Source of the DNA: a virus
Taxonomy: Duplodnaviria > Heunggongvirae > Uroviricota > Caudoviricetes
Virus record (IMG/VR): IMGVR_UViG_3300023179_004209
Coordinates: 231,832 to 295,831 of that record
DNA length: 64,000 nt
Reading direction: 5' to 3' (one strand)
A program made the translations under genes and the position numbers. This document shows positions 4,767 to 49,000 of this stretch, piece after piece (positions within the stretch are counted from its first letter, which is position 1; each line of letters starts with the position of its first letter). The notes under the pieces are model-generated. The model searched no databases. It was not told where the DNA came from and was given only the letters and a program-made list of their open reading frames with translations.

Positions 4767-5129
4767 ATGAAAAACATTGTTCATGTGATTTATCCTGATG
4801 AAGCCGTTCATTCTTTTGTGATGGAGACTGATATGGTTGTTAGTGATATTCTGGAACGGGTATTTGCTGAATGGAATCACGGTTCTGGTATGGAATCTGA
4901 ATTGTTTATCAGGTCCAAGAAACGTTCATTGAGTGTCAATGATATTGTTTGTGTTAATGGTAAATATTATTTGTGTGAGTCTTTTGGATGGAATGAAGTG
5001 ACTCCACAATTTGTTAATGAACTGGAGGAGGAAGTTAGCAATCATCCTAATAGGATTCATGGTGCTTGGTTTGCATTGAATGATGTTATGTGGGACCGTA
5101 AGAGTAAGAACAATTTGGAACTTGTATAA
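4767..5129 (+). CDS. hypothetical protein
   Basis: ORF. Confidence 0.55.
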   Translation: MKNIVHVIYPDEAVHSFVMETDMVVSDILERVFAEWNHGSGMESELFIRSKKRSLSVNDIVCVNGKYYLCESFGWNEVTPQFVNELEEEVSNHPNRIHGAWFALNDVMWDRKSKNNLELV

Positions 5130-5135
5130 AAATTT

Positions 5136-8613: not shown

Positions 8614-8892
8614 ATGAATAAAAAATTAGAATTAATGGTAGAATTAATGTATGTAATGGGACAATTTGGCAAAAACTTGACCGCAGAAAAAACTGCGGAA
8701 ATTATAGAACGAGATGGTAGTGTTGTTACAGGTTTTGTTGTGACTGACAAATATGGTAATGTTGGCATCATTGACAAAGGTGCGGTAAAATGGATTGACA
8801 AAGCTAAATTTTATGGTATGATGCATAATGAAATTGAATTTAACGGAGATGATTTGGTGAAGAGTGTAGAATCATTTGCTAAGACTATATGA
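8614..8892 (+). CDS. hypothetical protein; C-terminal 20 aa paralogous to N-terminus of 11442..11786
   Basis: ORF; EIEFNGDDLVKSVESFAKTI. Confidence 0.5.
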   Translation: MNKKLELMVELMYVMGQFGKNLTAEKTAEIIERDGSVVTGFVVTDKYGNVGIIDKGAVKWIDKAKFYGMMHNEIEFNGDDLVKSVESFAKTI

Positions 8893-9065
8893 AGTATCAA
8901 ATTATAGAAAGATTTGCGTGGTATTTTCCAGATAATGATATTGAAGTAAGCGTTTATCGTAAACAAAGTTATTTTCGTAGATTTATTATGTGGTTGTTTT
9001 TTGATGCTGAACTACGGACCTACTACAAGACACTTGACACTTGTAAGGTAAAAAAAGGTTGATAT
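8889..9065 (+). CDS. 58-aa hypothetical protein
   Basis: ORF below track cutoff, ATGA overlap. Confidence 0.3.
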
Positions 9066-9293
9066 ATGACTAAGAATGAGTTATTGAGTGCTTATAACAA
9101 GGTGTTGGCTGAGAATGTTGAATTACAGAATCAATTGGATTGGTATAAAAATTATGCTGATAGGTTGGTAGAACATAAGGATATGGTATGTTTACCGGCG
9201 GATTTGAAGAATTTGCGTGAAAGCAATCTAAAGTTGGCAACTGAGAATGAAGAGTTGAAGAAACTTATTATGGATAAGTGGTATGAAGATTAA
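9066..9293 (+). CDS. coiled-coil small protein
   Basis: ORF. Confidence 0.5.
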   Translation: MTKNELLSAYNKVLAENVELQNQLDWYKNYADRLVEHKDMVCLPADLKNLRESNLKLATENEELKKLIMDKWYED

Positions 9294-9558
9294 AGTTAAG
9301 AATATTAAGATTCCCAAATGTTTTCCGTATAAGGACTATACTTGTAAAGTTGATCGCCATAAATTTCACGCTAATTTATTTGAAGATAATGGTGGAGAGT
9401 TATCTGCAAAGATTGGTAGAGAGTTATATCTTGTCAAAGAAAATGGTAAATTGGAAGATTGGATTGATGAGGCTATGGAGATGAGTGATTTTTATCATAA
9501 TCTGGTTGACTTTCTAAAAGAAGTAAAGTATATTCATAACCAAGAGAAAAATGACTAA
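9283..9558 (+). CDS. hypothetical protein
   Basis: ORF. Confidence 0.5.
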   Translation: MKIKVKNIKIPKCFPYKDYTCKVDRHKFHANLFEDNGGELSAKIGRELYLVKENGKLEDWIDEAMEMSDFYHNLVDFLKEVKYIHNQEKND

Positions 9559-9913
9559 CGAAGAAATCAATAAAATTATTGCTGAATTTCGTGGGTGGGT
9601 GGAATATCATCCAACTCCAGAAAGCATATCCAAAGGATATCCTAGTTATTCTTATTGGACACCTCCGAGGGATTCAAAACAATTTGCTGAAAACTGGGGT
9701 AAATTAGAAATGGATTATCCGCCAGATTATTGTAATGATTTGAATGCAATGCATGACGCAGAAAATACACTAAATGATGATCAACAATATGAGTATGCTT
9801 ATGTGCTTGATGATTTGATTAAAAATCGTTCTTGTGAATTTGATTTGATTCACGCTTCTGCACGAATGCGAGCAGAAACTTTTGTAAGAACAATTAGTAA
9901 ATGGAAAGAATAG
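9551..9913 (+). CDS. hypothetical protein
   Basis: ORF. Confidence 0.5.
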   Translation: MTNEEINKIIAEFRGWVEYHPTPESISKGYPSYSYWTPPRDSKQFAENWGKLEMDYPPDYCNDLNAMHDAENTLNDDQQYEYAYVLDDLIKNRSCEFDLIHASARMRAETFVRTISKWKE

Positions 9914-10041
9914 TATGATTAAACAAACAAAAAAACATAGATTTTATGCGTGGTTACTTAAACATTTGATTTTGCCAAAATGTCTAAGAATGAGGCTTAT
10001 TAAAAAAGTAAGTGACACTGCTCAATATTGAATGTCAACAA

Positions 10042-10064
10042 CCCCTAGGATAAAGCCATAGGGG
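10042..10064. repeat. IS end hairpin CCCCTAGG-ATAAAG-CCATAGGGG (right end, overlaps tnpB stop)
   Basis: 8-bp stem with A bulge; near-identical copy at 11323-11345. Confidence 0.6.
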
Positions 10065-11211
10065 CTTGTAATGCTGTTGCTTTCACAACAGGCTTACATA
10101 CATTTGGCTGGTTGACGACAGCCTGCCCGTAAGTCAGGTAATTAGTCTGTGATACGGGAAGTTTGGACAATTTAGCAATATTGATTGCCGCATTAATGTC
10201 CGCATCATAAATAAGTCCATTCTTAGAGTAAAATCTACAACCTCTTCTTTCTCCATCACGATTTCCAGTTACACTATCAATCTGTGATGTATAATAAGGG
10301 CGAACTAGTAGAACCAATTTACCTTGATTCTCTGCCTTATAGCTTATTACTCTACGAAGTTCAAATATTGGAACTTGTCCAATTGAACGCTTATTTTGAT
10401 ATTTATTTTTTTTCTTTTTTATACCGACAAGATTTTCAAGCACGATTGTATCTGCTTCTGTGTTTAAAACTTCATTAGCAATCAAATGTGTTTGATTTCT
10501 ATTTTTGTTAGATTCTTTATGTTTTAACTTACGAAGATGTCTTCTGGCACTTTTAGTGCTTTTGGATTTGAGACTATCTTTTAAATGTCTCAATCTACGC
10601 TTATCTCCATTAAACTTTCTATCAATAATTATTCTACCATCACTACAAGCTGCATTACGACGAATGCCGATATCTACTCCTAAAGCGAGTTTTTGTTTTA
10701 ATGGTTCTTTAGGTTTATTATCAAATGTAAATGATATAAATAATTTACCATCATTTTCATAAATTAGAGGATCTGTATATTCATATTTGTCCAATAATTC
10801 CTTTAGTTTAGGATACACTACAAATTTAAATGATTGTCTTCCAGAAGTAGTAGTTATACGGATTGAATATTTATCAGTTTTGTTTTTTGAATAAAGTCTT
10901 TTATCTAAACGCATGGAAAGGTTTTTCTTTTCAATTGATTTTTTTAATCTGTGTTTATTTGACTTTGTAGATTTATAACTTGATAAACATTCTTGTTCTG
11001 CTTTAATAATAACTTGTGATGGTATATTTGGATATTGTTTTCTAATGTTATTATAAACTTTAGAATGTAAAACTAACAAACTATTTTTTGTTTCATTGAA
11101 TTGATGTTGTGAAGCAAAATTAAATACAACTTTATGCATTTCAAGAATTGACTTTAAACTATCAAAGTCTTCTTGATTTTTCATTAAAAGTTGTGTATTA
11201 TATGATATCAC
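10045..11211 (-). CDS. tnpB: TnpB (OrfB) RuvC-like RNA-guided nuclease family protein
   Basis: RuvC-I GVDIGIRRNAA, RuvC-II IVLENLVG, RuvC-III YDADINAAINIAK; zinc-finger Cys mostly lost. Confidence 0.75.
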   Translation of the reverse strand: MISYNTQLLMKNQEDFDSLKSILEMHKVVFNFASQHQFNETKNSLLVLHSKVYNNIRKQYPNIPSQVIIKAEQECLSSYKSTKSNKHRLKKSIEKKNLSMRLDKRLYSKNKTDKYSIRITTTSGRQSFKFVVYPKLKELLDKYEYTDPLIYENDGKLFISFTFDNKPKEPLKQKLALGVDIGIRRNAACSDGRIIIDRKFNGDKRRLRHLKDSLKSKSTKSARRHLRKLKHKESNKNRNQTHLIANEVLNTEADTIVLENLVGIKKKKNKYQNKRSIGQVPIFELRRVISYKAENQGKLVLLVRPYYTSQIDSVTGNRDGERRGCRFYSKNGLIYDADINAAINIAKLSKLPVSQTNYLTYGQAVVNQPNVCKPVVKATALQAPMALS

Positions 11212-11322
11212 TTCATATAAATATACACTATAAATACAAAAAGTGAAAAATAATGAAAAATATTTTTGTGGTTGACAAAATCAAGCGGTCAATGTATATT
11301 GATTACATAGTCGGAATTCCTC

Positions 11323-11345
11323 CCCCTAGGCTAAAGCCATAGGGG
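11323..11345. repeat. IS end hairpin CCCCTAGG-CTAAAG-CCATAGGGG (left end)
   Basis: same palindrome as 10042-10064. Confidence 0.6.
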
Positions 11346-11441
11346 TTTCCTTCCTCCAAAAAATATGAAGAAGAATGGTGGTGGATTGGATATAGTGATG
11401 GTGTGGATGATTATTCCAGAACTTTACATTTATAAAATAAT

Positions 11442-11786
11442 ATGAACAATAAAGAAATAGAATTTAATGTTGATGATTTAGTAAAAAGCGTTGAATCACT
11501 TGCTCAACATATAAAAAATGTACATTACGAAATGTATTATTTAAAAGAAGATTTGAACGAATATAAAAAAATAAACGAACTACAGCATAGGCTTATGAAA
11601 AACGCTGAAGAACGAGGTATAAAAAAAGGACTTCAAGAATCTCAAGAAGAATTACAAAAATATAAATCATTTGTAAATTCATTGCTTAGTCCCGAAGAAT
11701 ATGGTTATGCTGTTAGTGCTGAAGTGCGTGATCAAGCACGAATTTTGCTGGGTATGAAGCCAGTTGAAAGTAAATTAAAGAAATAA
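11442..11786 (+). CDS. coiled-coil protein; N-terminal EIEFNVDDLVKSVES motif
   Basis: ORF. Confidence 0.5.
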   Translation: MNNKEIEFNVDDLVKSVESLAQHIKNVHYEMYYLKEDLNEYKKINELQHRLMKNAEERGIKKGLQESQEELQKYKSFVNSLLSPEEYGYAVSAEVRDQARILLGMKPVESKLKK

Positions 11787-11787
11787 T

Positions 11788-12006
11788 ATGAATACAAAGT
11801 ATATAAGTATATATCCGCAATGGCATTGTAGAAATGGTGGTGGATTATTTGTTGGAATACGATTTCAATTTCCAGTGACTAACTATGATAGTGAAGCATT
11901 TGCTTCTAACCATACTTATAGTTGTTTACGCTTGACATTGGGACTATTAGTGTTTAGTATCAATGTAGAGGTAAAATACAATTATATTAAAATGTTACCC
12001 CAATGA
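11788..12006 (+). CDS. hypothetical small protein
   Basis: ORF. Confidence 0.4.
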   Translation: MNTKYISIYPQWHCRNGGGLFVGIRFQFPVTNYDSEAFASNHTYSCLRLTLGLLVFSINVEVKYNYIKMLPQ

Positions 12007-12350
12007 AATATGTTAAACTAATTGCCAAGCCTGATACTTGGTTTAAGGCGGGAACAGAAGCGTTTGATTACGACTGCTTTGGCAAACGAATTACGCTTGA
12101 GTCATACAATAAATGGCTCAAATCAGGCAGTATCTTGGCTAGAGGTATTCATATCTATGAAGATGGTGTTGAAGCTGAAGATGGTGAATTGTGCGGTATT
12201 GATGAATTTGATGTTGAAGTAGTTGAAGAAGAAAGGTTGATACAGACTAATCAAGTTGATGTTATGATTGAAATGGCAAAAGATTCTGACAAATTAGAGA
12301 GTGAGAATTTTATTGCAAAAGCAGCATTAAAAAATAATAACGAGGAATAA
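12003..12350 (+). CDS. acidic hypothetical protein
   Basis: ORF. Confidence 0.5.
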   Translation: MKYVKLIAKPDTWFKAGTEAFDYDCFGKRITLESYNKWLKSGSILARGIHIYEDGVEAEDGELCGIDEFDVEVVEEERLIQTNQVDVMIEMAKDSDKLESENFIAKAALKNNNEE

Positions 12351-12355
12351 TTAAT

Positions 12356-12688
12356 ATGATTTGTACCGCTAAACATCCTAATGATTATCATTTATTGACT
12401 CGACCAAAGATGAATGTTAAAATCTATGATTGTCAATGCAATGTGGTAGCGAATATAGAGGGAAATCTATCGTTAGATCTAATAGAGGACATTTATTCTA
12501 AAGAAGGACCACAGGCTGCAAAAGATGTTTGGTGGGAAACCTATTTGTGGATAAAAGAACAAGAGGCGATACAATATAAAGAAAAAGATATTCCGTGGCC
12601 TAAGCCATTAGATCCTCCAACTACTACTGCTGAGGCAGAAGCCAGACAAAGAAGGTTTGAAGATAATATCAGGTATATTCAAGGTTAA
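12356..12688 (+). CDS. hypothetical protein
   Basis: ORF. Confidence 0.5.
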   Translation: MICTAKHPNDYHLLTRPKMNVKIYDCQCNVVANIEGNLSLDLIEDIYSKEGPQAAKDVWWETYLWIKEQEAIQYKEKDIPWPKPLDPPTTTAEAEARQRRFEDNIRYIQG

Positions 12689-13299: not shown

Positions 13300-13338
13300 G
13301 TCTTGACTTAGTAATATATCAGTGATATATGTATTGAT

Positions 13339-13803
13339 ATGAACCGAAGAAAATTTATTACATCAACCGCACTTGCATTGCCATCCGTAGCAGTGTTTGG
13401 TGCAATATCAACGCAACCAGAAATGAATATGCTTTATAGAAAGCGTGATTTCATTTTTAATAGTGAAACCACGACTTATAGAAGTGCTACCAGTCTTTAT
13501 TCTAATGAGGATATGACGGAGTGGTGTAATAAGAATGGTTTGTATTATGCTAAAAATGATGAACTAAATAAACAACTTTTTAAACATCAAATAAATGACG
13601 ACTTAGTTTTTATGGATAAACATTTGTTTGATAGAGATAAGTCACTTAGTTATATAAAGTGTTATATAAATGGAAATGAACGCCAATTCTGGCATAAAGG
13701 TTATAAGCGTGTAGTAATAGACATTTTTACAACAGATGATAAAGAAATTTATTATTGGCCACAAAATAGTGTTGTGATTAGTTGTGTCTTTGGTGAAGCA
13801 TAA
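13339..13803 (+). CDS. secreted protein with Tat-like signal (RRKFITSTALALPSVAVFGA)
   Basis: twin-Arg motif and hydrophobic core. Confidence 0.55.
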   Translation: MNRRKFITSTALALPSVAVFGAISTQPEMNMLYRKRDFIFNSETTTYRSATSLYSNEDMTEWCNKNGLYYAKNDELNKQLFKHQINDDLVFMDKHLFDRDKSLSYIKCYINGNERQFWHKGYKRVVIDIFTTDDKEIYYWPQNSVVISCVFGEA

Positions 13804-13819
13804 TTTTTCAAAAAAGCTG

Positions 13820-13848
13820 TTGACTTCTGCGGAGGATTGGTGTAGGAT
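13820..13848 (+). promoter_or_regulatory. promoter TTGACT-N17-TAGGAT
   Basis: ATG at 13858 after ATATCCAAG. Confidence 0.65.
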
Positions 13849-13857
13849 ATATCCAAG

Positions 13858-13944
13858 ATGAATATTGAATTCCTAGCGGAAAATGCGGCGATGTTGGGAA
13901 TGATTCTGGGGATTGTTCTCATTTTGTGGATTGAAAATATTTAA
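13858..13944 (+). CDS. 28-aa hydrophobic peptide
   Basis: ATG in canonical position behind promoter. Confidence 0.3.
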   Translation: MNIEFLAENAAMLGMILGIVLILWIENI

Positions 13945-13953
13945 CAAAAGCTG

Positions 13954-13982
13954 TTGACTGATTAAGTAAAAAACAAATAAAA
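13954..13982 (+). promoter_or_regulatory. promoter TTGACT with weak -10
   Basis: GCTGTTGACT as in 13815-13825. Confidence 0.35.
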
Positions 13983-13984
13983 TT

Positions 13985-14114
13985 GTATCTTTTGTTAAGT
14001 TGTATATAGTTAATATTACAGGCTTCATTTCCTGTTCTAAAATTTAGCAGCCCTACTGCTAATATTAAAAAAGCCCCCAAGCTTTCCCTGATAGGCCCAC
14101 TATCAGGGTTTTTC
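13985..14114 (+). ncRNA. putative small RNA ending in a terminator
   Basis: hairpin AGCAGCCCTACTGCT, then terminator; no ORF. Confidence 0.3.
14086..14114 (+). terminator. Rho-independent terminator CCCTGATAG..TATCAGGG + TTTTT
   Basis: 8-bp stem and T-run. Confidence 0.65.
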
Positions 14115-14722
14115 ATTTTTATTTCAAATATATTTTTGTTTTTGTTGACGGCTAGATATTTATATACATAGCAATTTTGATTATCTCAATGTGGGCCATT
14201 GTATATGAGTCAAAATTCAATTGGAGCGGTAGAATAAAAAATGACCTGTATCTTGCTAACCGGAGATACTTGAATCAGACCGACCAGTCCAAAGCTCACG
14301 CAACAGAGCATAAAAATAAGAAAGTTAATTACTTTTCCTGAATACAATTTACCGGCCGTGATTAGAAATAATCAGAATATACTATTGTTGGTGTAAAATG
14401 TCTTTCATTATTTATGAATTGACGCACCGTGGAGTTTTGAGGTAGGCGTTCTCCCGCATATAGATGTAATAGATAGTATTGAGTTGCATAGCATCAGCTA
14501 TGGTTAATAGACTCTGTTATGTTGCGCATAGAACCTGTGTAGGACAGGGATCATATCCTACAGACGGCAGATATACATTATTGCAAACTACTATGATACA
14601 TATTTATACCTAGCAATAGGTGAATTGTATTCAGTAGTTTGCAAATCCGGCAGATGGAAGTTTGCCTAGCGGTTCAAATATAAATAAAGCGCTGTAACTT
14701 AATAAAATACTTATAGCATATT

Positions 14723-14983
14723 ATGACGCAGCAATTTAAAACATATACCAATAGTATTACCACTTTAATTGACGCAAACAATTATATACAACAAAAATAC
14801 GGAACTAATGCAATGTTAGAAGAAGTTGTTGTTGATGGTAAAACTAAATATCAATTTTGTAATATCCCCTCCGTCAAAAATTATCCCCATAAATTAAAAA
14901 ATGTTACATCTGCAATGAATGTATTGTTTGCGCATGAAAGAGGTTGGATTGCTTATAACAAAAATCTCAAAAATTCCAATTGA
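14723..14983 (+). CDS. hypothetical protein
   Basis: ORF; stop lies in the next -35. Confidence 0.5.
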   Translation: MTQQFKTYTNSITTLIDANNYIQQKYGTNAMLEEVVVDGKTKYQFCNIPSVKNYPHKLKNVTSAMNVLFAHERGWIAYNKNLKNSN

Positions 14984-24215: not shown

Positions 24216-25991
24216 ATGGCAATCAATATTTTTACACATATACGTAGAGGTTTATATGATAATGTTTACAATTGTATAGAAAAAGAAAAGGTGGATGTCA
24301 ATCAAAGAGATGATGACACTGGCAATCCACCACTGGTTGTTGCGGTAGAAGAAAACCAAATAGAAATAGTCAGATTACTATTAAACCACGGTGCTGATGC
24401 CAATTGTAAAGATTGGACCAGTAAAAATACCGCATTGGATGTAGCTGAACAAAAAGGTTTCAAAAATATTGCAGAAGTATTACAACAAAGAGGTGCAAAA
24501 TACAGTAGTGGTAGTAGTTTCCATTTAGCTGCAAAGAATGGTGATATCGTTTCTATCGAAGAAATGTTGAATAAAGGATGTGATATCAATGAAGTTGACG
24601 CAGGTAAAGGTTGGACTGCTCTACATTACGCTGTTAATTATGGACAAAAACACTTGGTTGAATATTTGATTATAAGAGGTGCAGATGTCAACAAGAAAGA
24701 TTTCTTGGGTAAAAACAATCCTATTGATGTATTATCCAACACCAATAGAGGTGAAATTGTTAAATTATTGAATAAATACGGTGCTAAATCCGCAGGTGGT
24801 GTTAGTATTCATTTCTGCGCAGAAACTGGTGATTTTGAAGGTGTACAATCATTCTTTGATAAAGATGGTAAAGTTAATGGTAGAGATGAAAAGAATGGAT
24901 GGATGCCATTACATTATGCCGTTAACGCTAACGATGTTGATATGGTGGAGTTTTTGGTACATTTGGGAGCAAATGTTAACGGTGCAGATTTTAAAGGTGA
25001 AATTGCTCCGTTAGACATTGCATTCAAGACTGGGAATGTAGAAATGCAAACATATCTACAATCCAAAGGTGCGCAAAGAAAGAAGAAACATGATACTGGT
25101 GGTGGTGGCAAAGATGTAACCATCTATATTACAGAAGAAGTCAAGAAACAAATTGCAATGTTTATTGAAAAGCGTGAAAAAGAAGAAGCTGCAATAAAGA
25201 AACATGAAGAAGAACAAACTGCAAAAGAACCTAAAAAGAAAGATGCACCAGCTAAGAAAATTAACTGGAAAGATTTCTTGAAACTTAAAGATATTCCAGT
25301 TGTAGAAAAGAAAGAAGAAAAGAAGGTAGAAGTGGTTAAACCCGTCAAACAAATTGTCAAGAAAGTTGAACAAGTTGATATAGAAGTTAAATCCAGTAGA
25401 TTACAATTGGATGTTGAACAAGAAGGTTACATATTCTTCATGGACATTGTTGCTTATAGTAAGAAAACAACTGATGAACAAAAGAAAGCTTGTAAAGATT
25501 TGGGTGCATTGGTTAAGTCTACAATGCAATATAAAACCGCTAATGCTCTTGAAAAGTTAATTATATTACCTACTGGTGACGGTATGGTATTGGGATTCTT
25601 TACTTATTTGGAAGATGCAATGAATTGTGCTATTGCTATAGCTAAAGCAGTAAAGGATAGACCAGATTTACAAATGAGAATGGGTGTACATTGTGGATCA
25701 GTAATTCCAATGGAAGACATCAATGGTAATCTTAACATTAGTGGTGACGGTATTAATTATGCTCAAAGAGTAATGGATGCGGGTGAAAGTAATCATTTAT
25801 TGGTTAGTTCAGCAGTAATGTTAAAGTATGACCGACCACCATATGTTTTGGTAAACGATCTGGGAGATGTAGTTGTAAAACATGGTGTAGTGATGCATTT
25901 GTATAGTTTACATGGTAGTGACTTTGGCAATAAAGCATTTCCATCTAGTAGAGTGAAGAAGGCAGAACCTACTGATTCAATCAAAAAATAG
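24216..25991 (+). CDS. ankyrin-repeat protein fused to class III nucleotidyl cyclase homology domain
   Basis: about 8 ANK repeats (GADANCKD, TALHYAV, PLHYAV...). K/E-rich linker. CHD motifs FFMDIVAYS, PTGDGMV, MRMGVHCGSV, SGDGINYAQRV. Confidence 0.65.
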   Translation: MAINIFTHIRRGLYDNVYNCIEKEKVDVNQRDDDTGNPPLVVAVEENQIEIVRLLLNHGADANCKDWTSKNTALDVAEQKGFKNIAEVLQQRGAKYSSGSSFHLAAKNGDIVSIEEMLNKGCDINEVDAGKGWTALHYAVNYGQKHLVEYLIIRGADVNKKDFLGKNNPIDVLSNTNRGEIVKLLNKYGAKSAGGVSIHFCAETGDFEGVQSFFDKDGKVNGRDEKNGWMPLHYAVNANDVDMVEFLVHLGANVNGADFKGEIAPLDIAFKTGNVEMQTYLQSKGAQRKKKHDTGGGGKDVTIYITEEVKKQIAMFIEKREKEEAAIKKHEEEQTAKEPKKKDAPAKKINWKDFLKLKDIPVVEKKEEKKVEVVKPVKQIVKKVEQVDIEVKSSRLQLDVEQEGYIFFMDIVAYSKKTTDEQKKACKDLGALVKSTMQYKTANALEKLIILPTGDGMVLGFFTYLEDAMNCAIAIAKAVKDRPDLQMRMGVHCGSVIPMEDINGNLNISGDGINYAQRVMDAGESNHLLVSSAVMLKYDRPPYVLVNDLGDVVVKHGVVMHLYSLHGSDFGNKAFPSSRVKKAEPTDSIKK

Positions 25992-32431: not shown

Positions 32432-33199
32432 ATGAAAGTCATCAAAGGAGACGTAAACTTAGATTGTTTAAATTTGAGAGAAATACCGGAAATTATCAAG
32501 GATGTTTCAATTGAAGGATCATTAAGTTTATATAATAACAATTTGCGTAGTCTTAAAAATTGTCCTAAAAAAATTATACGTCATTTAAATGTGGCTAATA
32601 ATAGAAGTTTACGTTCATTGGTTGGTGGACCAGAAGAAGTAGGTGCTATTGATGTACATAATTGTAATCTAACAAGTTTAGAAGGATTTCCAAAGATAGT
32701 TAAATCTGGCAATTTTTTAGGTGGTCGTGTAGATGTTAGTGGTAACAAATTGACTTCATTGGTTGGTTTACCAGAAGAATTGTCGGAGTTAGTGATATAT
32801 AATAATCCTGGTCTTAAAACATTGCAGGGTTGTCCTAAAATTATCCGTGGTGGTTTTGAAGCATTATGGTTACCAATTACCAATATGATTGGCGGTCCAA
32901 CTGTAATATATGATGATTTGTTGTTGTATGATACAGAAATAAATTCGTTGGAAGGATTTCCAAAAAAAGTTGGTGGCAACATTTTTCTAGGCAATACACC
33001 ACTTGGTAGTATATTATTTCCTAACAGAGTAACACCAGAAACAAAGAAAAAATCTGAGGAATTAATAAATAAAATACACAGTATATGTGATATTGGAGGT
33101 GGTATATACAGAACTGCAGATGATATTGAAGAAGAAAATCCAGAAATAGAAATGGATGATTATGAACCAGATGAATATGGAGGATTTCGCAGAGTATGA
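32432..33199 (+). CDS. LRR protein paralog 1 (LPX-type 20-22-aa repeats NxLTSLxGxP)
   Basis: about 9 repeats, e.g. NNLRSLKNCPKKI, CNLTSLEGFPKIV, NKLTSLVGLPEEL. Confidence 0.6.
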   Translation: MKVIKGDVNLDCLNLREIPEIIKDVSIEGSLSLYNNNLRSLKNCPKKIIRHLNVANNRSLRSLVGGPEEVGAIDVHNCNLTSLEGFPKIVKSGNFLGGRVDVSGNKLTSLVGLPEELSELVIYNNPGLKTLQGCPKIIRGGFEALWLPITNMIGGPTVIYDDLLLYDTEINSLEGFPKKVGGNIFLGNTPLGSILFPNRVTPETKKKSEELINKIHSICDIGGGIYRTADDIEEENPEIEMDDYEPDEYGGFRRV

Positions 33200-33921
33200 A
33201 ACGCAAACATTTTTATGATAATGTAGAATTAGATCATCTATTTCTAAAAGAAATACCAGATAATATTGCAATGTATGCGTGTCATGGTTTATATGATATA
33301 TCTGATAATAAACTTACATCATTAAAAAATTGTCCGTCATTTGTAAAAGATAATTTTAATTGCAGCCTTAATAACTTAACATCATTAAGAGATGGTCCAC
33401 AAGAAGTTCAAGGAAGTTATAATTGTGCTGATAATAAAATAACATCATTGGATGGTATTGCAAAAATTATTGGAGGAGGTGTAGATGTATCATATAATCA
33501 ATTGTCATCATTACAAGGTATTCCAACACTAAAATCTAATAGATTATTAAAAGTGAGTGATAATAAAATTACAAGTTTGATTGGATATGGATTTGAGTCA
33601 ATTGAATTTAGTTCATTTGATGTAACCTCAAATAAATTAACATCATTGGCAGGTAGTCCATATAGAGTGAATGCAAATTATGAATGTGATGCTAATCCAA
33701 TTGAAAACTTTGTGGGTGGTCCTAAATTTGTTGGAAGAAATTTTTATGCAACAAGTTTACGAAGTTTAAAATCAATTGAAGGATTACCACATGTAATTGA
33801 AGGTAGATTATTTATCAGTATGATTGATATGCGTAGAATATTTCCTGGTCTTGCTGACGGAAACATAATAAAAGAAATTAGATCTATCAGCAACATTATT
33901 GGTGGTATAGCTACAATATAA
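33196..33921 (+). CDS. LRR protein paralog 2
   Basis: NKLTSLKNCPSFV, NNLTSLRDGPQEV, NKITSLDGIAKII... Confidence 0.6.
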   Translation: MKRKHFYDNVELDHLFLKEIPDNIAMYACHGLYDISDNKLTSLKNCPSFVKDNFNCSLNNLTSLRDGPQEVQGSYNCADNKITSLDGIAKIIGGGVDVSYNQLSSLQGIPTLKSNRLLKVSDNKITSLIGYGFESIEFSSFDVTSNKLTSLAGSPYRVNANYECDANPIENFVGGPKFVGRNFYATSLRSLKSIEGLPHVIEGRLFISMIDMRRIFPGLADGNIIKEIRSISNIIGGIATI

Positions 33922-33925
33922 AATT

Positions 33926-34657
33926 ATGAAAAAAATAGAAGGATATGTAGATTTAAGTGATTATGACTTCAAAGAAGTACCGTCAATATTAAATGATGTT
34001 AGTATTGAAGGTATTCTAAATATAGCTGATAATCGCATAAAAAATTTAAACAACTTTCCTTTAAATTGTGAATCTGTTTATTTGTCAGGAAATCCATTAA
34101 CTAGTTTAGTTGGTATAAAACAAAAGTATATAAGGGATTTGGAAGCAAGTAGAACAAAGATTCAAAATTTGGAAGGATGTCCTGAAATTGTATCACAACT
34201 TTTAATAAAAAACTGTGCATCATTTAATAGTTTAAAAGGAACTTTAAAAGAAATCTCAGGTCAACCCGCATATTTGACTATAAGAGGTACTTCATTACAA
34301 ACATTAGAATATTGTCCAAAAACAAATAATAATGTTAGTTTTCGTCTTGATTTTAATAAAATAACATCATTAGTTGGTCTGCCAAATAAATGTCGTGATC
34401 TACATATCAGTGATAATAACTTAACTAGTCTAGTTGGATGTCCTCAACATATCAAGGGTGATTTTTATTGTAATAATAACAATTTGAAAACATTTGACGG
34501 ATTTCCCAAAGTAGTTGAAGGTATCATATATATGACACTTTCACCTATGTATGACAATCCATTGATGATGCAATCATATTATTTTGAAAAAGAAATTAGA
34601 AAAAGATGTAAAGTTTATGGTATATCATTGACTGAACCAAAAAATGTACAAATTTAA
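33926..34657 (+). CDS. LRR protein paralog 3
   Basis: same repeat type; N-terminal DFKEVPSILNDVSIEG shared with paralogs 1 and 4. Confidence 0.6.
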   Translation: MKKIEGYVDLSDYDFKEVPSILNDVSIEGILNIADNRIKNLNNFPLNCESVYLSGNPLTSLVGIKQKYIRDLEASRTKIQNLEGCPEIVSQLLIKNCASFNSLKGTLKEISGQPAYLTIRGTSLQTLEYCPKTNNNVSFRLDFNKITSLVGLPNKCRDLHISDNNLTSLVGCPQHIKGDFYCNNNNLKTFDGFPKVVEGIIYMTLSPMYDNPLMMQSYYFEKEIRKRCKVYGISLTEPKNVQI

Positions 34658-34668
34658 TAACTGATAAT

Positions 34669-35349
34669 ATGGGAAAATATATAAAAGGAGATGTAACATT
34701 ATCTGGACTTCATTTAAAGAAGCTGCCTGAAATATTAAAGGATTTAACAATTGAAGGCAGTATATTTTTGAGTGGAAATCAGCTCACTACATTAGAAAAT
34801 TTCCCGGAACTTGTAACGGAAAATATAATGTTAGGTTCAAATCCATTGGTTAGTTTAAAAGGTATAAAACAAACCGCTGTATCAACATTATCCATAGATA
34901 ACGGTAAATTTAGTAATTTGGAAGGATGTCCATCACACATTAATAAATTAAATATAGTGGGTAATAGTAACTTAAAAAGTCTAAAGGGACTTGCACCTCA
35001 TTTAATATCTTTAAAAATTATAGGTACACCATTGCAAACAATGGAATATTGCAATCAAAATATTCACGGTACATATCATCTTGAATTTAATTTATTAAAA
35101 TCTCTGGTTGGAATGCCAAAACAATGTAGAGAACTAAAAATAGGATTCAATCAATTAGAAAATTTTATTGGTGCTCCTGAAGTTGTACTTGGAGATTTTC
35201 AATGTTATCATAATCCAATACTATCATTGGAAGGATTTCCAAAATATGCAAAAAGAGTGATTATTAATAATTTTATGAAAGACAGAGAACTTACAAGAAG
35301 AGATGTAGCAAGAGTGTGTGAAGCAGAAGAAATTGTCATTTCAGTATAA
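34669..35349 (+). CDS. LRR protein paralog 4
   Basis: LHLKKLPEILKDLTIEGS; NQLTTLENFPELV etc. Confidence 0.6.
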   Translation: MGKYIKGDVTLSGLHLKKLPEILKDLTIEGSIFLSGNQLTTLENFPELVTENIMLGSNPLVSLKGIKQTAVSTLSIDNGKFSNLEGCPSHINKLNIVGNSNLKSLKGLAPHLISLKIIGTPLQTMEYCNQNIHGTYHLEFNLLKSLVGMPKQCRELKIGFNQLENFIGAPEVVLGDFQCYHNPILSLEGFPKYAKRVIINNFMKDRELTRRDVARVCEAEEIVISV

Positions 35350-40929: not shown

Positions 40930-41571
40930 ATGTTAAAATCATTATTATCACTACTATTAACTACAACAATATTTGCAGCGGAATTTGAATCGGTAAATTA
41001 TTATACAAAGAATTACCTATTTGACGCTCAAATATATTCTGTCAATACTTTCGTATCCGAAAACACACTTAGCCATCAACTAGGTGATTTTACGCCGCAT
41101 CTTGACTATGTACAATACCAAGGTTTGGATAAATATAAAGAAAGTGACTTTGGATTTGGTAGTGAATATAAACTAACAGATAAACTAAATTTGGATGTAG
41201 GTAGTTGGTATTACTATTATTACAGTGCAGGTGACCATTATTTTGAACCATACGCATCATTAACTTATGATTGGATAGTATCACCAACATTATATTTTAG
41301 TATGATAACATACAATAATACACCTAGAGCAACAATAAGCTTTGATTATAACAAAGATTTTAATGAAAAGCTGCATTTGAATGTAAGACCAGTGATTGGT
41401 ACTGCAGACTATGATGTAAGATATGGTTATTATGGTATAGTATTTGGTTTGGATTACAATGTAAATAAGAATTTTACATTGTTTACTGTTACAGAAGTTG
41501 ATAAACCTTTTAGTTCACCTGACGATAGTATCGTATACACTTATTCATTTGGAATCAAATTATCCCTATGA
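40930..41571 (+). CDS. secreted Tyr-rich beta-rich protein (possible outer-membrane protein)
   Basis: signal peptide MLKSLLSLLLTTTIFAA; alternating aromatic pattern. Confidence 0.5.
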   Translation: MLKSLLSLLLTTTIFAAEFESVNYYTKNYLFDAQIYSVNTFVSENTLSHQLGDFTPHLDYVQYQGLDKYKESDFGFGSEYKLTDKLNLDVGSWYYYYYSAGDHYFEPYASLTYDWIVSPTLYFSMITYNNTPRATISFDYNKDFNEKLHLNVRPVIGTADYDVRYGYYGIVFGLDYNVNKNFTLFTVTEVDKPFSSPDDSIVYTYSFGIKLSL

Positions 41572-43007
41572 AATTTCTTAAATTCAATTTGAGATTCGCA
41601 TTATCTACCAGCACACTATTCATTTTAGTGTTGGTAAGTATGGTATATTTCTTTTTGTTAATATTTGCAATTGAAGATATTGCAAAGAATAGTTTGAAAA
41701 GAAGTTTAAATACCTCGGTGAATATTTGTAGCAGTATTCTTGACCCAAATGAAATTGAAAAGTTAACTGAATATGAACAAGAAAAAAGCGAAGTATTTAT
41801 CAATTACAGAAAGTCTATCAAAGAAATAAAGAAAGAAGTAGAAGATATTAAATTTGTTTATATTGTAAGACAAACGGGTACAAATATCACTTATATAATA
41901 GATTGTGGTGATGATGTATCCGAACAAGCTAAATTGGGTGAAATATATGATGATGCGGGTGATGGATTGAAAGAATTATTTAACAATCCAGTTGAAGGTG
42001 TAACATTTGAGAAAGAATATTATACAGACAAGTGGGGTACATTTTTATCCGCATATAAACCAATATTTAAAAACGGTAAAATCATATATGCAGTTTGCAG
42101 TGATATCAAGTCAGTTGATGTTGAAAAGTATATATCAAATTATAAAAAGAAGTTTACTTGTGCATTTTTTACATTGTTAATTGTTATATTTCCAATCATA
42201 TGTTGGATAACAAATATGATTAGAAGACCACTTAATAAGTTAAGAGATGAAATTCTCAAGTTAAAAGATTTGGATGTAGATGAACATATTGATTTTAAGA
42301 GTAGTATCAGTGAAGTAAATGATATGATTGACGCAACTGATAAGGTAAAAACTGGTTTAAGATCATTTTCAAAGTATGTACCTGACAAGGTTGTAAAACA
42401 ATTGATAAGTCAAGGTAAGGATGCAAAAATTGGTGGGGAAAAAGAATATGTAACAATACTATTTAGTGACATTGAAGGATTTACAAGTATATCTGAAAAC
42501 AATGATACTCAAGAAGTTGTAACTGCATTAAATGAATATTTTGATATCTATGTACATTGTTTGGAAGAAAGTGGTGCAACTGTTGATAAATTCATTGGTG
42601 ACGCTGTAATGTCATTTTGGAATGCACCAAGTAAAGTTGAAAACCATGAATTTATTGCGGTCAAAACTGCAATGGAAATTGTCAAAGAAATTAATAAATT
42701 GAATCAAAAATGGAAAACTGAAGGTAAGAAATTTACATTCAAAACCAGAATAGGTATCAATTCTGGTGAAGTTATTGTCGGTAATATTGGTTCGACAAAC
42801 CGTATCAATTATACTGTTACTGGTGATCCTGTTAATTTGGCATCAAGATTAGAAGCGTCAAATAAACAATACAATACAACAATTTTAGTAAGTGAATCTG
42901 TTTATAATAAAACAAAAGAGTCAATTGATTATAATTATATTGACACAGTGAAGGTAAAAGGAAAAGAAATATATGTAAAAGTATATCAACCCGTTAAACT
43001 CAAGTAA
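41568..43007 (+). CDS. transmembrane sensor class III adenylyl/guanylyl cyclase
   Basis: TM1, about 150-aa extracytoplasmic domain, TM2, linker, then CHD. CHD motifs FSDIEGFTSISE, KFIGDAVMSFWNAP, RIGINSGEVIVGNIGS, TVTGDPVNLASRLE. Confidence 0.75.
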   Translation: MKFLKFNLRFALSTSTLFILVLVSMVYFFLLIFAIEDIAKNSLKRSLNTSVNICSSILDPNEIEKLTEYEQEKSEVFINYRKSIKEIKKEVEDIKFVYIVRQTGTNITYIIDCGDDVSEQAKLGEIYDDAGDGLKELFNNPVEGVTFEKEYYTDKWGTFLSAYKPIFKNGKIIYAVCSDIKSVDVEKYISNYKKKFTCAFFTLLIVIFPIICWITNMIRRPLNKLRDEILKLKDLDVDEHIDFKSSISEVNDMIDATDKVKTGLRSFSKYVPDKVVKQLISQGKDAKIGGEKEYVTILFSDIEGFTSISENNDTQEVVTALNEYFDIYVHCLEESGATVDKFIGDAVMSFWNAPSKVENHEFIAVKTAMEIVKEINKLNQKWKTEGKKFTFKTRIGINSGEVIVGNIGSTNRINYTVTGDPVNLASRLEASNKQYNTTILVSESVYNKTKESIDYNYIDTVKVKGKEIYVKVYQPVKLK

Positions 43008-45530: not shown

Positions 45531-45606
45531 GTCCCTATAGCTCAAACGGATAGAGCATCTGCCTTCTAAGCAGATGATCCAGGTTCGATTCCTGGTGGGG
45601 ATACCA
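45531..45606 (+). tRNA. tRNA-Arg (anticodon TCT)
   Basis: hand-folded cloverleaf. Acceptor GTCCCTA/TGGGGAT with wobbles; D-stem GCTC/GAGC; anticodon arm TCTGC-CTTCTAA-GCAGA; T-arm CCAGG-TTCGATT-CCTGG; A+CCA. Confidence 0.7.
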
Positions 45607-45668
45607 TTTTTTGAACATATTTATAAATTTGTATATATTTATATGTTCAAACTTCTCTAAAAAAGAAG

Positions 45669-45696
45669 TTGATTCTTTGAAAATTTGCGGTAAGAT
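45669..45696 (+). promoter_or_regulatory. promoter TTGATT-N17-TAAGAT followed by the AGTAGTAAGT..GTTCTTT motif
   Basis: one of four promoters in the RNA cluster followed by GTAGTAAGT. Confidence 0.45.
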
Positions 45697-45823
45697 AAAG
45701 AAGTAGTAAGTAATTTGTTCTTTCAGCATGGTGGGAGAAGCACTCCTCTAGAACATCTTCGTATGGCGGAACTGCCTTGACCTTTAATCAAAGGGGGTCA
45801 CCAACGAAAGAAACAAATTACTG

Positions 45824-45852
45824 TTGACAAAAGAATAAATCGTGGTAAGATA
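45824..45852 (+). promoter_or_regulatory. promoter TTGACA-N17-TAAGAT followed by AGTAGTAAGTTCTTTAAAA
   Basis: as above. Confidence 0.5.
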
Positions 45853-45936
45853 AAAAAGTAGTAAGTTCTTTAAAATAAAAATATGAAAGTAAAGGATTAC
45901 TAATCTTTTGCTTATAATGTATAATATATATTCTAT

Positions 45937-46368
45937 ATGGAACATAGTAAACAAAAAGGCAATTTAGGATTTTCTGCAACTCTCAAAGAATTACATAAAC
46001 TTGGATATAATGTATTTACTGAAGTTGGAGATTACTCTAAAATAGATATGATAGTTGAGGTAAAGAATAAATTAATTAAACTTCAAGTTAAATACATTAC
46101 GGATTCAAATGGAAAAGTAACTTTAAACTTACAAAAAAGTGGACCAAATGGGTATAGATACAAGTATACAGAACTTGATATAGATTTGTTCAGTATTTAC
46201 TTACCTACTTTAGATAAAGTAATTTTTGTACCTGCTAAATTAGCTTGTAAGAATACTAAAGCATTTAGCATTAGATTTAATGAAAGTAAAAATCATCAAA
46301 GTAAACATATTAATTATATAAGTGAATTTGAAGATTTAAATAAAACACTAAACAATTTAGTTCTTTAA
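45937..46368 (+). CDS. hypothetical protein embedded in the tRNA cluster
   Basis: ORF; stop codon lies within the GTTCTTTAAAA motif. Confidence 0.5.
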   Translation: MEHSKQKGNLGFSATLKELHKLGYNVFTEVGDYSKIDMIVEVKNKLIKLQVKYITDSNGKVTLNLQKSGPNGYRYKYTELDIDLFSIYLPTLDKVIFVPAKLACKNTKAFSIRFNESKNHQSKHINYISEFEDLNKTLNNLVL

Positions 46369-46375
46369 AATTTAT

Positions 46376-46451
46376 GGGATTGTAGCTCAATTGGCAGAGC
46401 AGTTCGCTTTTAACGAATTGGTTGACGGTTCAAGTCCGTCCGGTCCCACCA
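46376..46451 (+). tRNA. tRNA-Lys (anticodon TTT)
   Basis: GGGATTG..CGGTCCC acceptor; anticodon loop CTTTTAA; T-arm GACGG-TTCAAGT-CCGTC; A+CCA. Confidence 0.7.
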
Positions 46452-46457
46452 TTTAAT

Positions 46458-46532
46458 GGCGTTATCGTCTATCGGCTAGGACACTGGACTTTCACTCCGG
46501 TAAGAGGGGTTCGATTCCCCTTAACGCTACCA
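46458..46532 (+). tRNA. tRNA-Glu (anticodon TTC)
   Basis: GGCGTTA..TAACGCT acceptor; anticodon loop CTTTCAC; T-arm GGGG-TTCGATT-CCCC. Confidence 0.65.
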
Positions 46533-46721
46533 TTTTGTTTGTCCGTTGCTTAAAAGAAACGGAATGGTGGAGGGTAAATAACCAAAACACCCCTAGAGTT
46601 GGAAGTTCTCTTAAAAAACTTCTTGGTTGCGGGGATGAGTCATGGTATACTTTGTTTGTTGGGTGGACAAAGTATTCAATAAACACACCCAACACAATTT
46701 ATATAGTTCTTTAAAATTCAA

Positions 46722-46878
46722 TAGCTGGCGGCAGGTTAGATCTGGGGGTGGCTCATAACCATTCATTAAGTAGGTGCGATTCCTATGCTTCAGCAACCAT
46801 TTGAATGGCTGGGGTTTCAGCAAACGACGAATCCTCATAAGGTTTGTTAAGTGGGGGCAGCACCCATACCAGCTACCA
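46722..46878 (+). ncRNA. tRNA-like / mini tmRNA-like element (acceptor-like stem + T-like arm + CCA; internal GCA AAC GAC GAA TCC TCA TAA)
   Basis: 5' TAGCTGG pairs with 3' CCAGCTA followed by CCA; hairpin GTGGG-GGCAGCA-CCCAT; exact 12-mer of canonical tmRNA tag start at 46820. Confidence 0.3.
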
Positions 46879-46970
46879 TTTACGCCCGGAGAATATCCGA
46901 TCAATACGCAACACGGAAAGAAACCTCCTCTAAAGGGAAACTTGCTAGTAGCGGGCGACGATTTTAGATG

Positions 46971-46998
46971 TTGACAAAACATCAATGTGTGATAAGAT
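46971..46998 (+). promoter_or_regulatory. promoter TTGACA-N16-TAAGAT
   Basis: drives short RNA ending at terminator 47109-47141. Confidence 0.5.
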
Positions 46999-47004
46999 GA
47001 TTTT

Positions 47005-47141
47005 AAGGTTAGTTGAGTCCGTTACCTTAGATTAAAAACTCAACAGTGTTTGATCAGAGCTTCTATAATAAATGATCTCTCGACCAGTAGATAGCTGGTT
47101 ACATTTTCAGTGGTTTTGAAGATAAAACCACTCGGATTTTT
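47005..47141 (+). ncRNA. putative small RNA between promoter and terminator
   Basis: hairpin GTTGAGT..ACTCAAC and terminator hairpin AGTGGTTTT..AAAACCACT + TTTTT; no ORF. Confidence 0.4.
47109..47141 (+). terminator. Rho-independent terminator
   Basis: 9-bp stem + CGGATTTTT. Confidence 0.6.
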
Positions 47142-47166
47142 AGTTAGTTCTTTAACAAAACAATTT

Positions 47167-47252
47167 GCGGGGTGTCAGAAGTCTGGTATCTGGCTACGCT
47201 CATAACGTAGTGCCATTTGGCCTCGGAGGTTCAAATCCTCCCCCCGCTACCA
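47167..47252 (+). tRNA. long-variable-arm tRNA with anticodon CAT (identity uncertain)
   Basis: D-stem CAGA/TCTG; anticodon arm CTACG-CTCATAA-CGTAG; 14-nt variable arm; T-arm GGAGG-TTCAAAT-CCTCC; 6-bp acceptor GCGGGG/CCCCGC; ends ..TACCA. Confidence 0.5.
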
Positions 47253-47258
47253 TTTAGT

Positions 47259-47350
47259 GGCCTCAAGATGTAAGGTGCATGGGGAGACTTATAATCTCTA
47301 TAATCGCTCGATTGGCGTTCTGGGCAGTTCGATTCTGCATGAGGCTACCA
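47259..47350 (+). tRNA. type II tRNA, Leu/Tyr-like body with anticodon loop CTTATAA (apparent anticodon TAT)
   Basis: acceptor GGCCTCA/TGAGGCT; anticodon stem GGAGA/TCTCT; long variable arm; T-loop TTCGATT; A+CCA. Confidence 0.5.
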
Positions 47351-47529
47351 TTTTTGATCGTGTAATGGAATTAGACATACGGATGATGGGTAGCACAAAG
47401 TTACGTTACTTGGAGTGGTTTCCAAGTGTAGTTGAAGCAAATTGTGTCCATCAGACGGGTGCTAGATATAGTCTAACCAACCTTGAAACTAGTTGTGGGT
47501 ATTCCAGTCCCACCACGATCACATTTTAC

Positions 47530-47613
47530 GGGTGTGTGATGTAATGGCAGCCATGCAGCACTCAAAATGCTGTGGAGAAATCCGTGGGGGTTCAAGTCCC
47601 TCCATACCCACCA
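47530..47613 (+). tRNA. tRNA-Leu (anticodon CAA)
   Basis: acceptor GGGTGTG/CATACCC; anticodon arm CAGCA-CTCAAAA-TGCTG; long variable arm; T-loop TTCAAGT; A+CCA. Confidence 0.6.
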
Positions 47614-47660
47614 TTTTTATTGTTCATTGAAAATTAGTAGACGCAAAGTAATTTGTATTT

Positions 47661-48350: not shown

Positions 48351-48351
48351 A
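48323..48351 (+). promoter_or_regulatory. promoter TTGACA-N17-TAAGAT inside the 3' end of the HNH gene, followed by AGTAGTAAGT..GTTCTTTAAAA
   Basis: same architecture as 45824 promoter. Confidence 0.5.
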
Positions 48352-48387
48352 AGAGTAGTAAGTGATGGTTCTTTAAAAACTTTTAGT

Positions 48388-48476: not shown

Positions 48477-48499
48477 TTTTTGATAGTTCTTTAACAATT

Positions 48500-48810: not shown

Positions 48811-48814
48811 ATAT

Positions 48815-48887: not shown

Positions 48888-48897
48888 TTTTAGTAAT

Positions 48898-48990: not shown

Positions 48991-49000
48991 TTTTAAATAT

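Follow-up and report, generated by a model that had tools for sequence, protein, structure and literature searches.

A probable non-autonomous IS200/IS605-family element encoding a zinc-finger-less TnpB in an uncultured freshwater phage

The DNA analyzed here, called the window throughout, is a 64,000-nucleotide (64-kb) stretch of the IMG/VR virus record IMGVR_UViG_3300023179_004209 (positions 231,832 to 295,831). On its minus strand, at 10034-11364, lies what is very likely a 1331-bp non-autonomous insertion sequence (IS) of the IS200/IS605 family. The copy has an IS605-like layout and is a tnpA-less derivative residing in an uncultured freshwater phage. The element is genuine, well delimited and probably active. 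The main points of interest are an apparently virus-restricted lineage of TnpB without a zinc finger, a transposon-associated motif (TAM) that is also a start codon, coexistence with relatives bearing the exact RNA-guided target, and the chance to test TnpB homing between phages directly.

Extent and ends of the element

An initial annotation, made from the window sequence, had placed the element at 10030-11365. The element proved real, but its exact bounds are 10034-11364. One IMG/VR contig (L001) has only window positions 10030-11371 in common with the window, at 99.2% DNA identity, between unrelated flanks. Homology to three more distant copies (L003, L005 and L006) breaks at the same borders. 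In ten further contigs, the same site is occupied and the encoded protein is identical, and a 97%-identical protein (P0001) occupies a third site in nine contigs (L026-L034). Relatives without the IS also break at these borders. The same unit was thus found in different contexts, together with unoccupied sites, as is expected of a mobile element.

In tnpB-sense order, the aligned ends read TTCAT, then, inside the border, ATTTTTTGGAGGAAGGAAA, a hairpin, tnpB, TTACAAG, a second hairpin and T(T/A)GTTGAC, beyond which the flank is variable. The right end terminates in GTTGAC at 10034, and TTCAT (11369-11365) stands just beyond the left end. The features are as follows.

10034-11364, minus strand: very likely complete non-autonomous IS200/IS605-family element (left end, tnpB, right end)
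11365-11369, minus strand: conserved pentanucleotide TTCAT on the 5' side of the left end, where TnpA is presumed to cleave, and presumed TAM of TnpB; read on the plus strand, ATGAA, the start codon of a 26-residue open reading frame (ORF)
11323-11345, minus strand: left-end subterminal hairpin CCCCTA-T-GGC-TTTA-GCC-TAGGGG, with one unpaired T
11212-11322, minus strand: left-end interior, from the hairpin to tnpB, with an invariant TGTCAA/TTGACA box and a promoter-like site; sibling copies hold tnpA here
10045-11211, minus strand: tnpB coding sequence, 388 residues from GTG 11211 or 379 from ATG 11184; RuvC Asp 10672-10674, Glu 10435-10437, Asp 10198-10200; zinc-finger Cys absent
10034-10168, minus strand: predicted omega-RNA scaffold with 3' tail UUGUUGAC; covarying helices from about 10158 down to the right-end hairpin
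10042-10064, minus strand: right-end subterminal hairpin, also the last helix of the predicted omega RNA; encodes the TnpB C-terminus ...LQAPMALS and stop
10014-10033, minus strand: putative guide-encoding flank 5'-ATTCAATATTGAGCAGTGTC-3'

The two hairpins correspond to the 23-nucleotide (nt) imperfect palindrome CCCCTAGG-M-TAAAG-CCATAGGGG, which occurs exactly twice in the 64 kb (10042-10064 and 11323-11345), with none expected from 100 shuffles. They are set back by 19 nt from the left end and by 8 nt from the right end. Across copies, both stems of the hairpin show compensatory changes at left and right ends alike (CCGCTATCCCTTTAGGGTAGCGG and CCTCTTCGGCTTTAGCCAAGAGG are examples). Taken with the borders of the L001 copy, this bears out the proposal that a mobile unit has these hairpins as its subterminal ends. 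The flanks ...TTCTTCAT and ATTCAATATT... show no duplication, so the insertion left no target-site duplication; the subterminal palindromes are those of the IS200/IS605 family. TTCAT was found 4-6 nt ahead of TTGGAGG in 16 distinct left ends and TTCAC in four others, which points to insertion at a fixed pentanucleotide.

The TTCAC left ends, which are GTG starts on the opposite strand, are at L003:8687, L003:9210, L058:2810 and L094:2146. Two solo units of about 55 nt were also observed (L048:~5080-5134 and L003:~9200-9254). Each comprises TTCAT, the left-end terminus, a single hairpin and the right-end terminus GTTGAC/GTTGAT. They look like deletions of tnpB between both hairpins, or minimal hairpin-only elements.

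A TnpB with an intact catalytic triad and no zinc finger

The 388-residue minus-strand ORF and its RuvC-I, RuvC-II and RuvC-III motifs (GVDIGIRRNAA, IVLENL and YDADINAAINIAK) are present as first described. Checked against hidden Markov models, the protein falls inside TnpB, an RNA-guided endonuclease of the OMEGA class, scoring 128.2 bits with NCBIfam NF040570 (guided_TnpB, cut-off 100) and 49.6 bits with Pfam PF07282 (Cas12f1-like TNB domain, cut-off 26.3). The score with PF01385 was 29.3 bits, slightly below the cut-off of 30.5, and a match to PHROG 506 (annotated transposase) was obtained. Among solved structures, the closest matches were TnpB and Cas12f proteins, with ISDra2 TnpB (8bf8) as a remote one (E = 2e-7). 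GVDIG, LEN and DADIN of the window protein align with the catalytic motifs of ISDra2 TnpB, which we take to be those of D191, E278 and D361, the last being the RuvC-III Asp. The resulting D-E-D triad, residues 171, 250 and 329 in the 379-residue numbering, is invariant in 18 aligned relatives.

Public gene callers use the internal ATG at 11184, giving a 379-residue product, and this exact protein was found in 41 metagenome-assembly blocks, mostly from freshwater. The peptide (M)I[ST]YNT encoded upstream of this ATG is kept in most homologues. Because this N-terminus is conserved, the longer form is favored, and the 388-residue protein is probably the true tnpB product.

A C4 zinc finger between RuvC-II and RuvC-III was found neither in the window TnpB nor in its 18 relatives. 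All four canonical Cys residues are replaced (QIDSVTG ... FYSKNG), the first CxxC reading D-S-V-T and the second S-K-N-(G). The sole Cys left in the region (RRGCRF) is at a non-canonical position. Identical replacements (D-S-x-T/S-G and S/A-K-x-G) occur in 18/18 aligned homologues, which are 68-92% identical, and the catalytic D, E and D along with more than 130 other columns are invariant. Since the replacements are uniform across these relatives, the absent finger is, on the evidence of the alignment, a lineage trait under purifying selection and not decay. The earlier description of a degenerate finger with a single Cys thus holds for the loss of the canonical residues; the finger is not degenerating, and the Cys that remains is not one of the four. 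Some large TnpB branches are devoid of the C4 finger, so the feature is typical and not strictly defining (PMC10691335).

An AlphaFold2 model was built from 18 close sequences in a shallow alignment. Its mean predicted local distance difference test (pLDDT) score was 65, with values below 50 over residues 294-379, and the model was not used.

Omega RNA and guide

The final 180 nt of 32 elements from viral contigs, with TnpBs 37-99% identical to that of the window, were aligned. RNAalifold returned 24 pairs in six helices, and 18 of these pairs show compensatory double changes. Paired cells amounted to 97%, compared with 30-46% when the 3' partners were slid by 1-3 columns, and the covariation score was 0.619, compared with 0.06-0.12 in controls; the observed values were reached by 0/500 shuffles. 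Four of the helices fall within the coding region of the TnpB C-terminal tail, and the last two are the right-end hairpin. The minimum-free-energy fold of the window sequence contains the same helices (-48 kcal/mol, z = -3.3). A covariance model made from the alignment, a check that the initial annotation had called for, gave 130 bits at the predicted scaffold and 18 bits at the left-end hairpin, with otherwise nothing convincing in the window. The Rfam scan of the window returned only tRNAs and no omega-RNA family match.

This covariation strongly supports a structured omega RNA that spans the 3' part of tnpB as well as the right end. The overlap had been anticipated at about 10045-10200; it stands, but its supported extent is about 10158-10034. 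Given the architecture of characterized TnpB systems and the right-end border at 10034, the guide would be the flank 3' of the right end, from 10033 to about 10014. It was previously put at 10020-10042, which is off by about 10 nt, the guide lying further out since the right end is at 10034. In the aligned copies, the guide is whatever adjoins the right end, and it differs at every site.

IS-less relatives carry the predicted target

Metagenomes were scanned with 14 nt of the guide complement plus the TAM. The 53 matches comprised 31 relatives and 22 chance matches in unrelated DNA. In the 31 relatives, all IS-less metagenome contigs, window position 10033 is joined directly to 11785, and the 3' end of a 38-residue ORF abuts ATGAAT..., which in 27/31 is the start of a homologue of the window's 72-residue gene (11788). 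Read on the minus strand, all 31 junctions consist of TTCAT followed directly by a perfect 20-nt match to the window guide. Over 110-150 nt or more, the flank on the right-end side shares 93-98% identity with the window. On the side of the 72-residue gene, flank identity reaches 98-99% for the 12 closest contigs; for the remaining ones it is 80-92%.

Relative to these junctions, the window has 1752 extra bp, made up of the IS and of two genes encoding 26 and 114 residues. The same two genes occur without the IS in L179, where identity to the window starts exactly at ATGAA, 11365. No second TAM plus guide target was found within the window. Self-targeting was rejected, the sole near match being the right-end junction, with TTGAC in place of TTCAT.

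Sibling copies with tnpA

No ORF for a Y1 transposase was found in the 64-kb window by phmmer with the IS608 TnpA sequence as query. The same search detected tnpA in other loci, which served as a positive control, and the absence of tnpA noted at the outset is therefore confirmed. Sibling viral loci have, in the stretch that separates tnpB from the left end, an oppositely oriented ORF of 139-153 residues: L040 (75%), L004/L038 (80%), L042 (73%), L057 (69%) and the more distant L081. PF01797 (Y1_Tnp) was matched with 118-123 bits by 4/4 sibling ORFs scanned against Pfam (L040, L004, L057 and L042). From the orientation of these ORFs, the tnpA of the siblings is divergent from tnpB, an IS605-like layout. 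About 430 bp that include tnpA in L004 correspond to the gap between window positions 11267 and 11310, and because it is without this segment the window copy is a non-autonomous derivative.

L040 and L002, together with L036, are on one 54-kb contig. This contig comes from a related phage, since stretches of it are 86-97% identical to window 13323-14965. With L040 and L002 on the same contig, at least one related phage carries both autonomous and tnpB-only copies. The L002 copy (L002:5890-5960), whose tnpB is 92% identical, has lost the left-end hairpin by deletion between flanking GGAGGAA repeats and has kept tnpB and the right end. It could not be excised by TnpA, yet it could still produce a guide RNA.

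Distribution of the lineage

The protein search yielded 702 full-length homologues, and the best 120 of the 702 are all at least 67% identical. IMG/VR contains 60 loci with a related tnpB, and several contigs have two or three copies. An alignment-seeded scan of 185,579 prokaryotic species, with one genome per species, gave a best match that is 58% identical and is located on a Woesearchaeota-binned contig of 2.6 kb; the next matches were at most 38% identical and mostly archaeal. A single-protein scan of cellular genomes gave no match. Against cultured phage genomes, megablast of window 9000-12500 found no match, and tblastn of TnpB found at most 27% identity. Within the limits of pattern-seeded scans, the finger-less lineage appears to be restricted to uncultured viruses.

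Insertion upstream of start codons

The genes next to the element are as follows.

9915-10031, plus strand: 38-residue ORF whose stop is 2 nt before the insertion point and whose 3' end supplies the putative guide; called as a gene in L019/L178
11365-11787, plus strand: 26-residue ORF (11365-11445) and 114-residue gene (11442-11786), putative passenger genes that fill the interval from the left end to where the IS-less relatives resume the window sequence

The element was inserted 2 nt past the stop of the 38-residue ORF and immediately ahead of the start of the 26-residue ORF, which overlaps the next gene by ATGA. An exact-protein look-up gave no record of the 38-residue ORF, and no contig with the exact 120-residue flanking gene extends as far as the site. 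The complementary strand of TTCAT reads ATGAA, and insertions are accordingly located exactly upstream of start codons. At 14 of the 16 distinct TTCAT left ends, an ORF that starts with ATG and has 25 codons or more begins directly next to the end on the opposite strand; in the four TTCAC left ends the pentanucleotide corresponds to a GTG start. As a background, 34/103 plus-strand ORFs of the window begin with ATGAA, and 34/295 plus-strand ATGAA sites are gene starts.

Shine-Dalgarno (SD)-like motifs were found upstream of 13/103 window ORFs, no more commonly than in random sequence. Given this scarcity, replacement of the native leader by the A-rich left-end terminus may be tolerated. The scarcity of SD motifs across the plus-strand ORFs also suggests a host in which translation initiation does not depend on them.

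A promoter-like site, TTGACA-17-TATATT (11272-11300, plus strand; scan score 11/12), faces outward to the flanking phage genes. Its TGTCAA/TTGACA box (11272-11277) is invariant in 13 left ends. The site is plausibly the former tnpA promoter.

Shared peptide and mosaic neighborhood

The initial annotation had also placed the element between two genes that share a 20-residue motif. The shared peptide is real, but the copies (8818-8892 and 11446-11520) are in genes 2.6 kb apart and not in immediate neighbors. The aligned DNA is identical in 56/81 columns, about 70%. With such divergence and spacing, a target-site duplication was rejected as the explanation. The 19-residue module, NK[DE]IEFN[GV]DDLVKSVES[FL]A, was observed at 11446-11520, 8818-8892 and L026:4638-5015, where it heads two otherwise unrelated genes and ends a third. 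It heads the 114-residue gene of the window, the remainder of which is unrelated to the L026 gene.

In other phages, this gene-boundary module is itself the insertion site of a sister copy. In L026, the sister element has ...KWIDKAKFYGMMQG next to its right end and MNKDIEFNGDDLVKSVESFA... next to its left end, and the window ORF at 8614-8892 reads ...KWIDKAKFYGMMHNEIEFNGDDLVKSVESFAKTI. As both flanks of L026 are present, this ORF is read as an IS-less, slightly rearranged insertion site of the L026-L034 element. The two flanks are near-identical in window 8740-8892 and ATGAA is kept; a few adjacent nucleotides differ, so the TAM-proximal end of the target of the L026-L034 element has changed. 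From these comparisons, the shared motif looks like a short conserved gene-boundary segment beside IS target sites, where gene modules are exchanged.

Compared with L016-L025, L175-L184 and L188-L239, window 9900-12000 is highly mosaic, with immediate flanks of high identity and different genes a few hundred bases away. Several assemblies break right beside the element.

Wider context of the window

The window has 32.8% G+C, and 103 of its 128 crude ORFs are on the plus strand, so that tnpB is antisense to most. PHROG and Pfam matches include a helicase, a T4-type RNA ligase 1, HD, Macro and SPFH domains, ankyrin repeats and two nucleotide cyclase domains. Among the window proteins tested, none was identified as a capsid or terminase protein. 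The viral assignment is based on these matches, on gene organization and on the membership of relatives in IMG/VR.

Seven tRNA genes are clustered at 45531-49109, and three of the matches have lengths of 85-109 nt, suggestive of introns or long variable arms. Domains of class III nucleotide cyclases were detected at 24216-25991 (a weak match of 22.5 bits, fused to ankyrin repeats) and at 41568-43007 (PF00211, 94.9 bits). The ankyrin-fused cyclase is unusual phage cargo. Four tandem paralogues of about 226-255 residues with leucine-rich-repeat-like periodicity occupy 32432-35349, the first being without a Pfam match.

Proposed mechanism and its alternatives

The steps proposed for movement, omega-RNA processing and cutting are taken from established IS200/IS605 and TnpB biology. 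TnpA acting in trans, encoded by an autonomous copy either in the same phage or in one that co-infects, would move the element as single-stranded DNA to a position 3' of TTCAT. Processing of the tnpB mRNA would yield an omega RNA that ends with the flank ATTCAATATTGAGCAGTGTC as its final 16-20 nt or so. The complex of TnpB and this RNA would cut TTCAT followed by ATTCAATATTGAGCAGTGTC, which is the unoccupied site. On co-infection, the break in the IS-less genome would be repaired from the IS-bearing one, and the element would be copied in with the 26- and 114-residue genes, that is, by homing with co-conversion. Insertion would be tolerated, as it lands just upstream of start codons and disrupts no ORF, and the outward promoter-like site from the former tnpA side may keep downstream genes transcribed.

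Extended to the whole lineage, this gives a tentative proposal that we regard as possible and as falling short of even chances. The finger-less TnpBs would be a natural RNA-guided gene drive between co-infecting phages, cutting IS-less relatives at gene-start TAMs and being copied in with passenger genes, here those of 26 and 114 residues. The IS605 elements would drive the shuffling of boundary modules, and the start-codon TAM and outward promoter would be adaptations to tightly packed phage genomes.

Several points weigh against the mechanism proposed for the window element. That the protein cuts DNA without a zinc finger is an assumption based solely on its conservation, and the structure model is uninformative on the C-terminal, finger-less domain. 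The source of TnpA is not within the 64-kb window. The initial annotation had suggested a search for the empty site in related phages; the IS-less relatives do break exactly at the element borders, but the exact empty joint of the 38-residue and 26-residue ORFs was not found in viral or metagenome contigs. Likewise, no IS directly between the 38-residue and 72-residue genes was found in IMG/VR. The present arrangement may have come from recombination between IS copies at two sites and not from insertion here; homing with co-conversion or an unsampled ancestor may also be its origin. The association with start codons may reflect survivorship, with insertions inside genes killing the phage, rather than targeting. 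Restriction to viruses rests on pattern-seeded scans with one genome per species.

A different account is that TnpB and its RNA are a domesticated, immobile phage nuclease, a fixed weapon against competing phages or host DNA, with the hairpins as leftovers. The missing tnpA, the occurrence of close relatives in viral contigs only, the match of the guide to competing relatives and the L002 sibling, which retains tnpB and the right end without the left-end hairpin, would all suit such a role. A fixed weapon is nevertheless hard to reconcile with a 99.2% copy in an unrelated context and a 97% copy at a third site. Left-end hairpins have no role in the RNA and are still kept paired by compensatory changes, and the TTCAT beside the left end is conserved. 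The guide, moreover, is simply the right-end flank and changes from site to site, and autonomous siblings with tnpA exist. We consider domestication unlikely.

Slightly less probable again is an inactive relic, in which loss of the finger killed the nuclease and the gene is decaying. The four zinc-coordinating Cys residues are indeed gone, and the structure model has low confidence in the finger region. Decay would not, however, be expected to leave the same replacements in 18/18 aligned sequences, with D, E, D and more than 130 columns invariant. It is also at odds with the 702 full-length homologues, with an intact ORF whose exact protein recurs in 41 assembly blocks, and with published surveys in which entire TnpB branches are reported to be finger-less (PMC10691335).

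A TldR-type role, in which a relative of TnpB acts as an RNA-guided repressor and binds DNA without cutting, is highly improbable even though phage-encoded TnpB-derived repressors are known (bioRxiv 10.1101/2023.11.30.569447). None of the catalytic residues D, E and D is missing or variable, the element has transposon ends and several insertion sites, and the guide is a transposon flank and not a promoter. Membership of TldR was rejected with the intact triad and the flank-derived guide as grounds.

The proposal of RNA-guided homing between phages gains its interest from the locus itself, which offers a concrete natural allele pair: an IS-bearing phage and 31 co-circulating relatives with the exact TAM and 20-nt target, flanked by 93-99% identical sequence for repair. 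It makes RNA-guided homing, co-conversion of passengers and competition between phages directly testable. The compact TnpB (379-388 residues), from a lineage that as sampled is finger-less and has kept its catalytic site, bears on the purpose of the finger and on miniaturized editors. The TAM that doubles as a start codon suggests how transposons colonize genomes with almost no intergenic space.

Comparison with known systems

IS605 and IS608 from Helicobacter pylori and ISDra2 from Deinococcus radiodurans are the reference IS200/IS605 elements with TnpB; IS608 inserts 3' of TTAC and ISDra2 3' of TTGAT. Published work on the reference TnpB elements includes Karvelis 2021 and Meers 2023 (PMC10055086). 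Like these elements, the window element has an imperfect subterminal hairpin at each end, lacks inverted repeats, shows no duplicated target, and is inserted 3' of a fixed short sequence, here TTCAT. It also shares with them the position of tnpB on the right side, a predicted omega RNA over the 3' end of tnpB and the right end, and a flank-derived guide. The tnpA carried by sibling copies is divergent from tnpB, as in IS605. In contrast to the reference elements, the window copy has neither tnpA nor the C4 zinc finger, its TAM doubles as a start codon, and its close relatives were found only in viral or metagenome contigs.

RIIIr-4 is a zinc-finger-less TnpB clade in which the RuvC-III Asp is replaced by His (Altae-Tran et al. 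2023, PMC10691335). The window TnpB has in common with RIIIr-4 and other finger-less branches that the C4 finger was lost as a lineage trait; some of these branches are virus-enriched (PMC10691335). Membership of RIIIr-4 was nonetheless rejected, since the DADIN motif of the window TnpB (DADxN) keeps an Asp aligned to the RuvC-III Asp of ISDra2 where RIIIr-4 has His.

TnpB homing has been shown in bacterial chromosomes and plasmids, and a review treats homing in phages as a so far theoretical case (PMC13565253). The arrangement described here resembles the TnpB-driven IS gene drive in plasmids (bioRxiv 10.1101/2025.02.20.638934) and 'transposon non-restorative homing' (PMC13565253) in that the guide targets the unoccupied allele in a co-resident replicon and spread would not require TnpA. 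It differs from the plasmid drive in that the replicons are co-circulating phage genomes, the basis being only the natural coexistence of occupied and target-bearing alleles. A further parallel is provided by the free-standing homing endonucleases of T-even phages (SegF, SegB and others), whose genes likewise lie between conserved phage genes and whose target is a related phage without the gene, so that neighbors would be co-converted. The window element differs from SegF and SegB in that recognition would be by an RNA guide and TAM, not by protein, and in that the transposon ends are kept.

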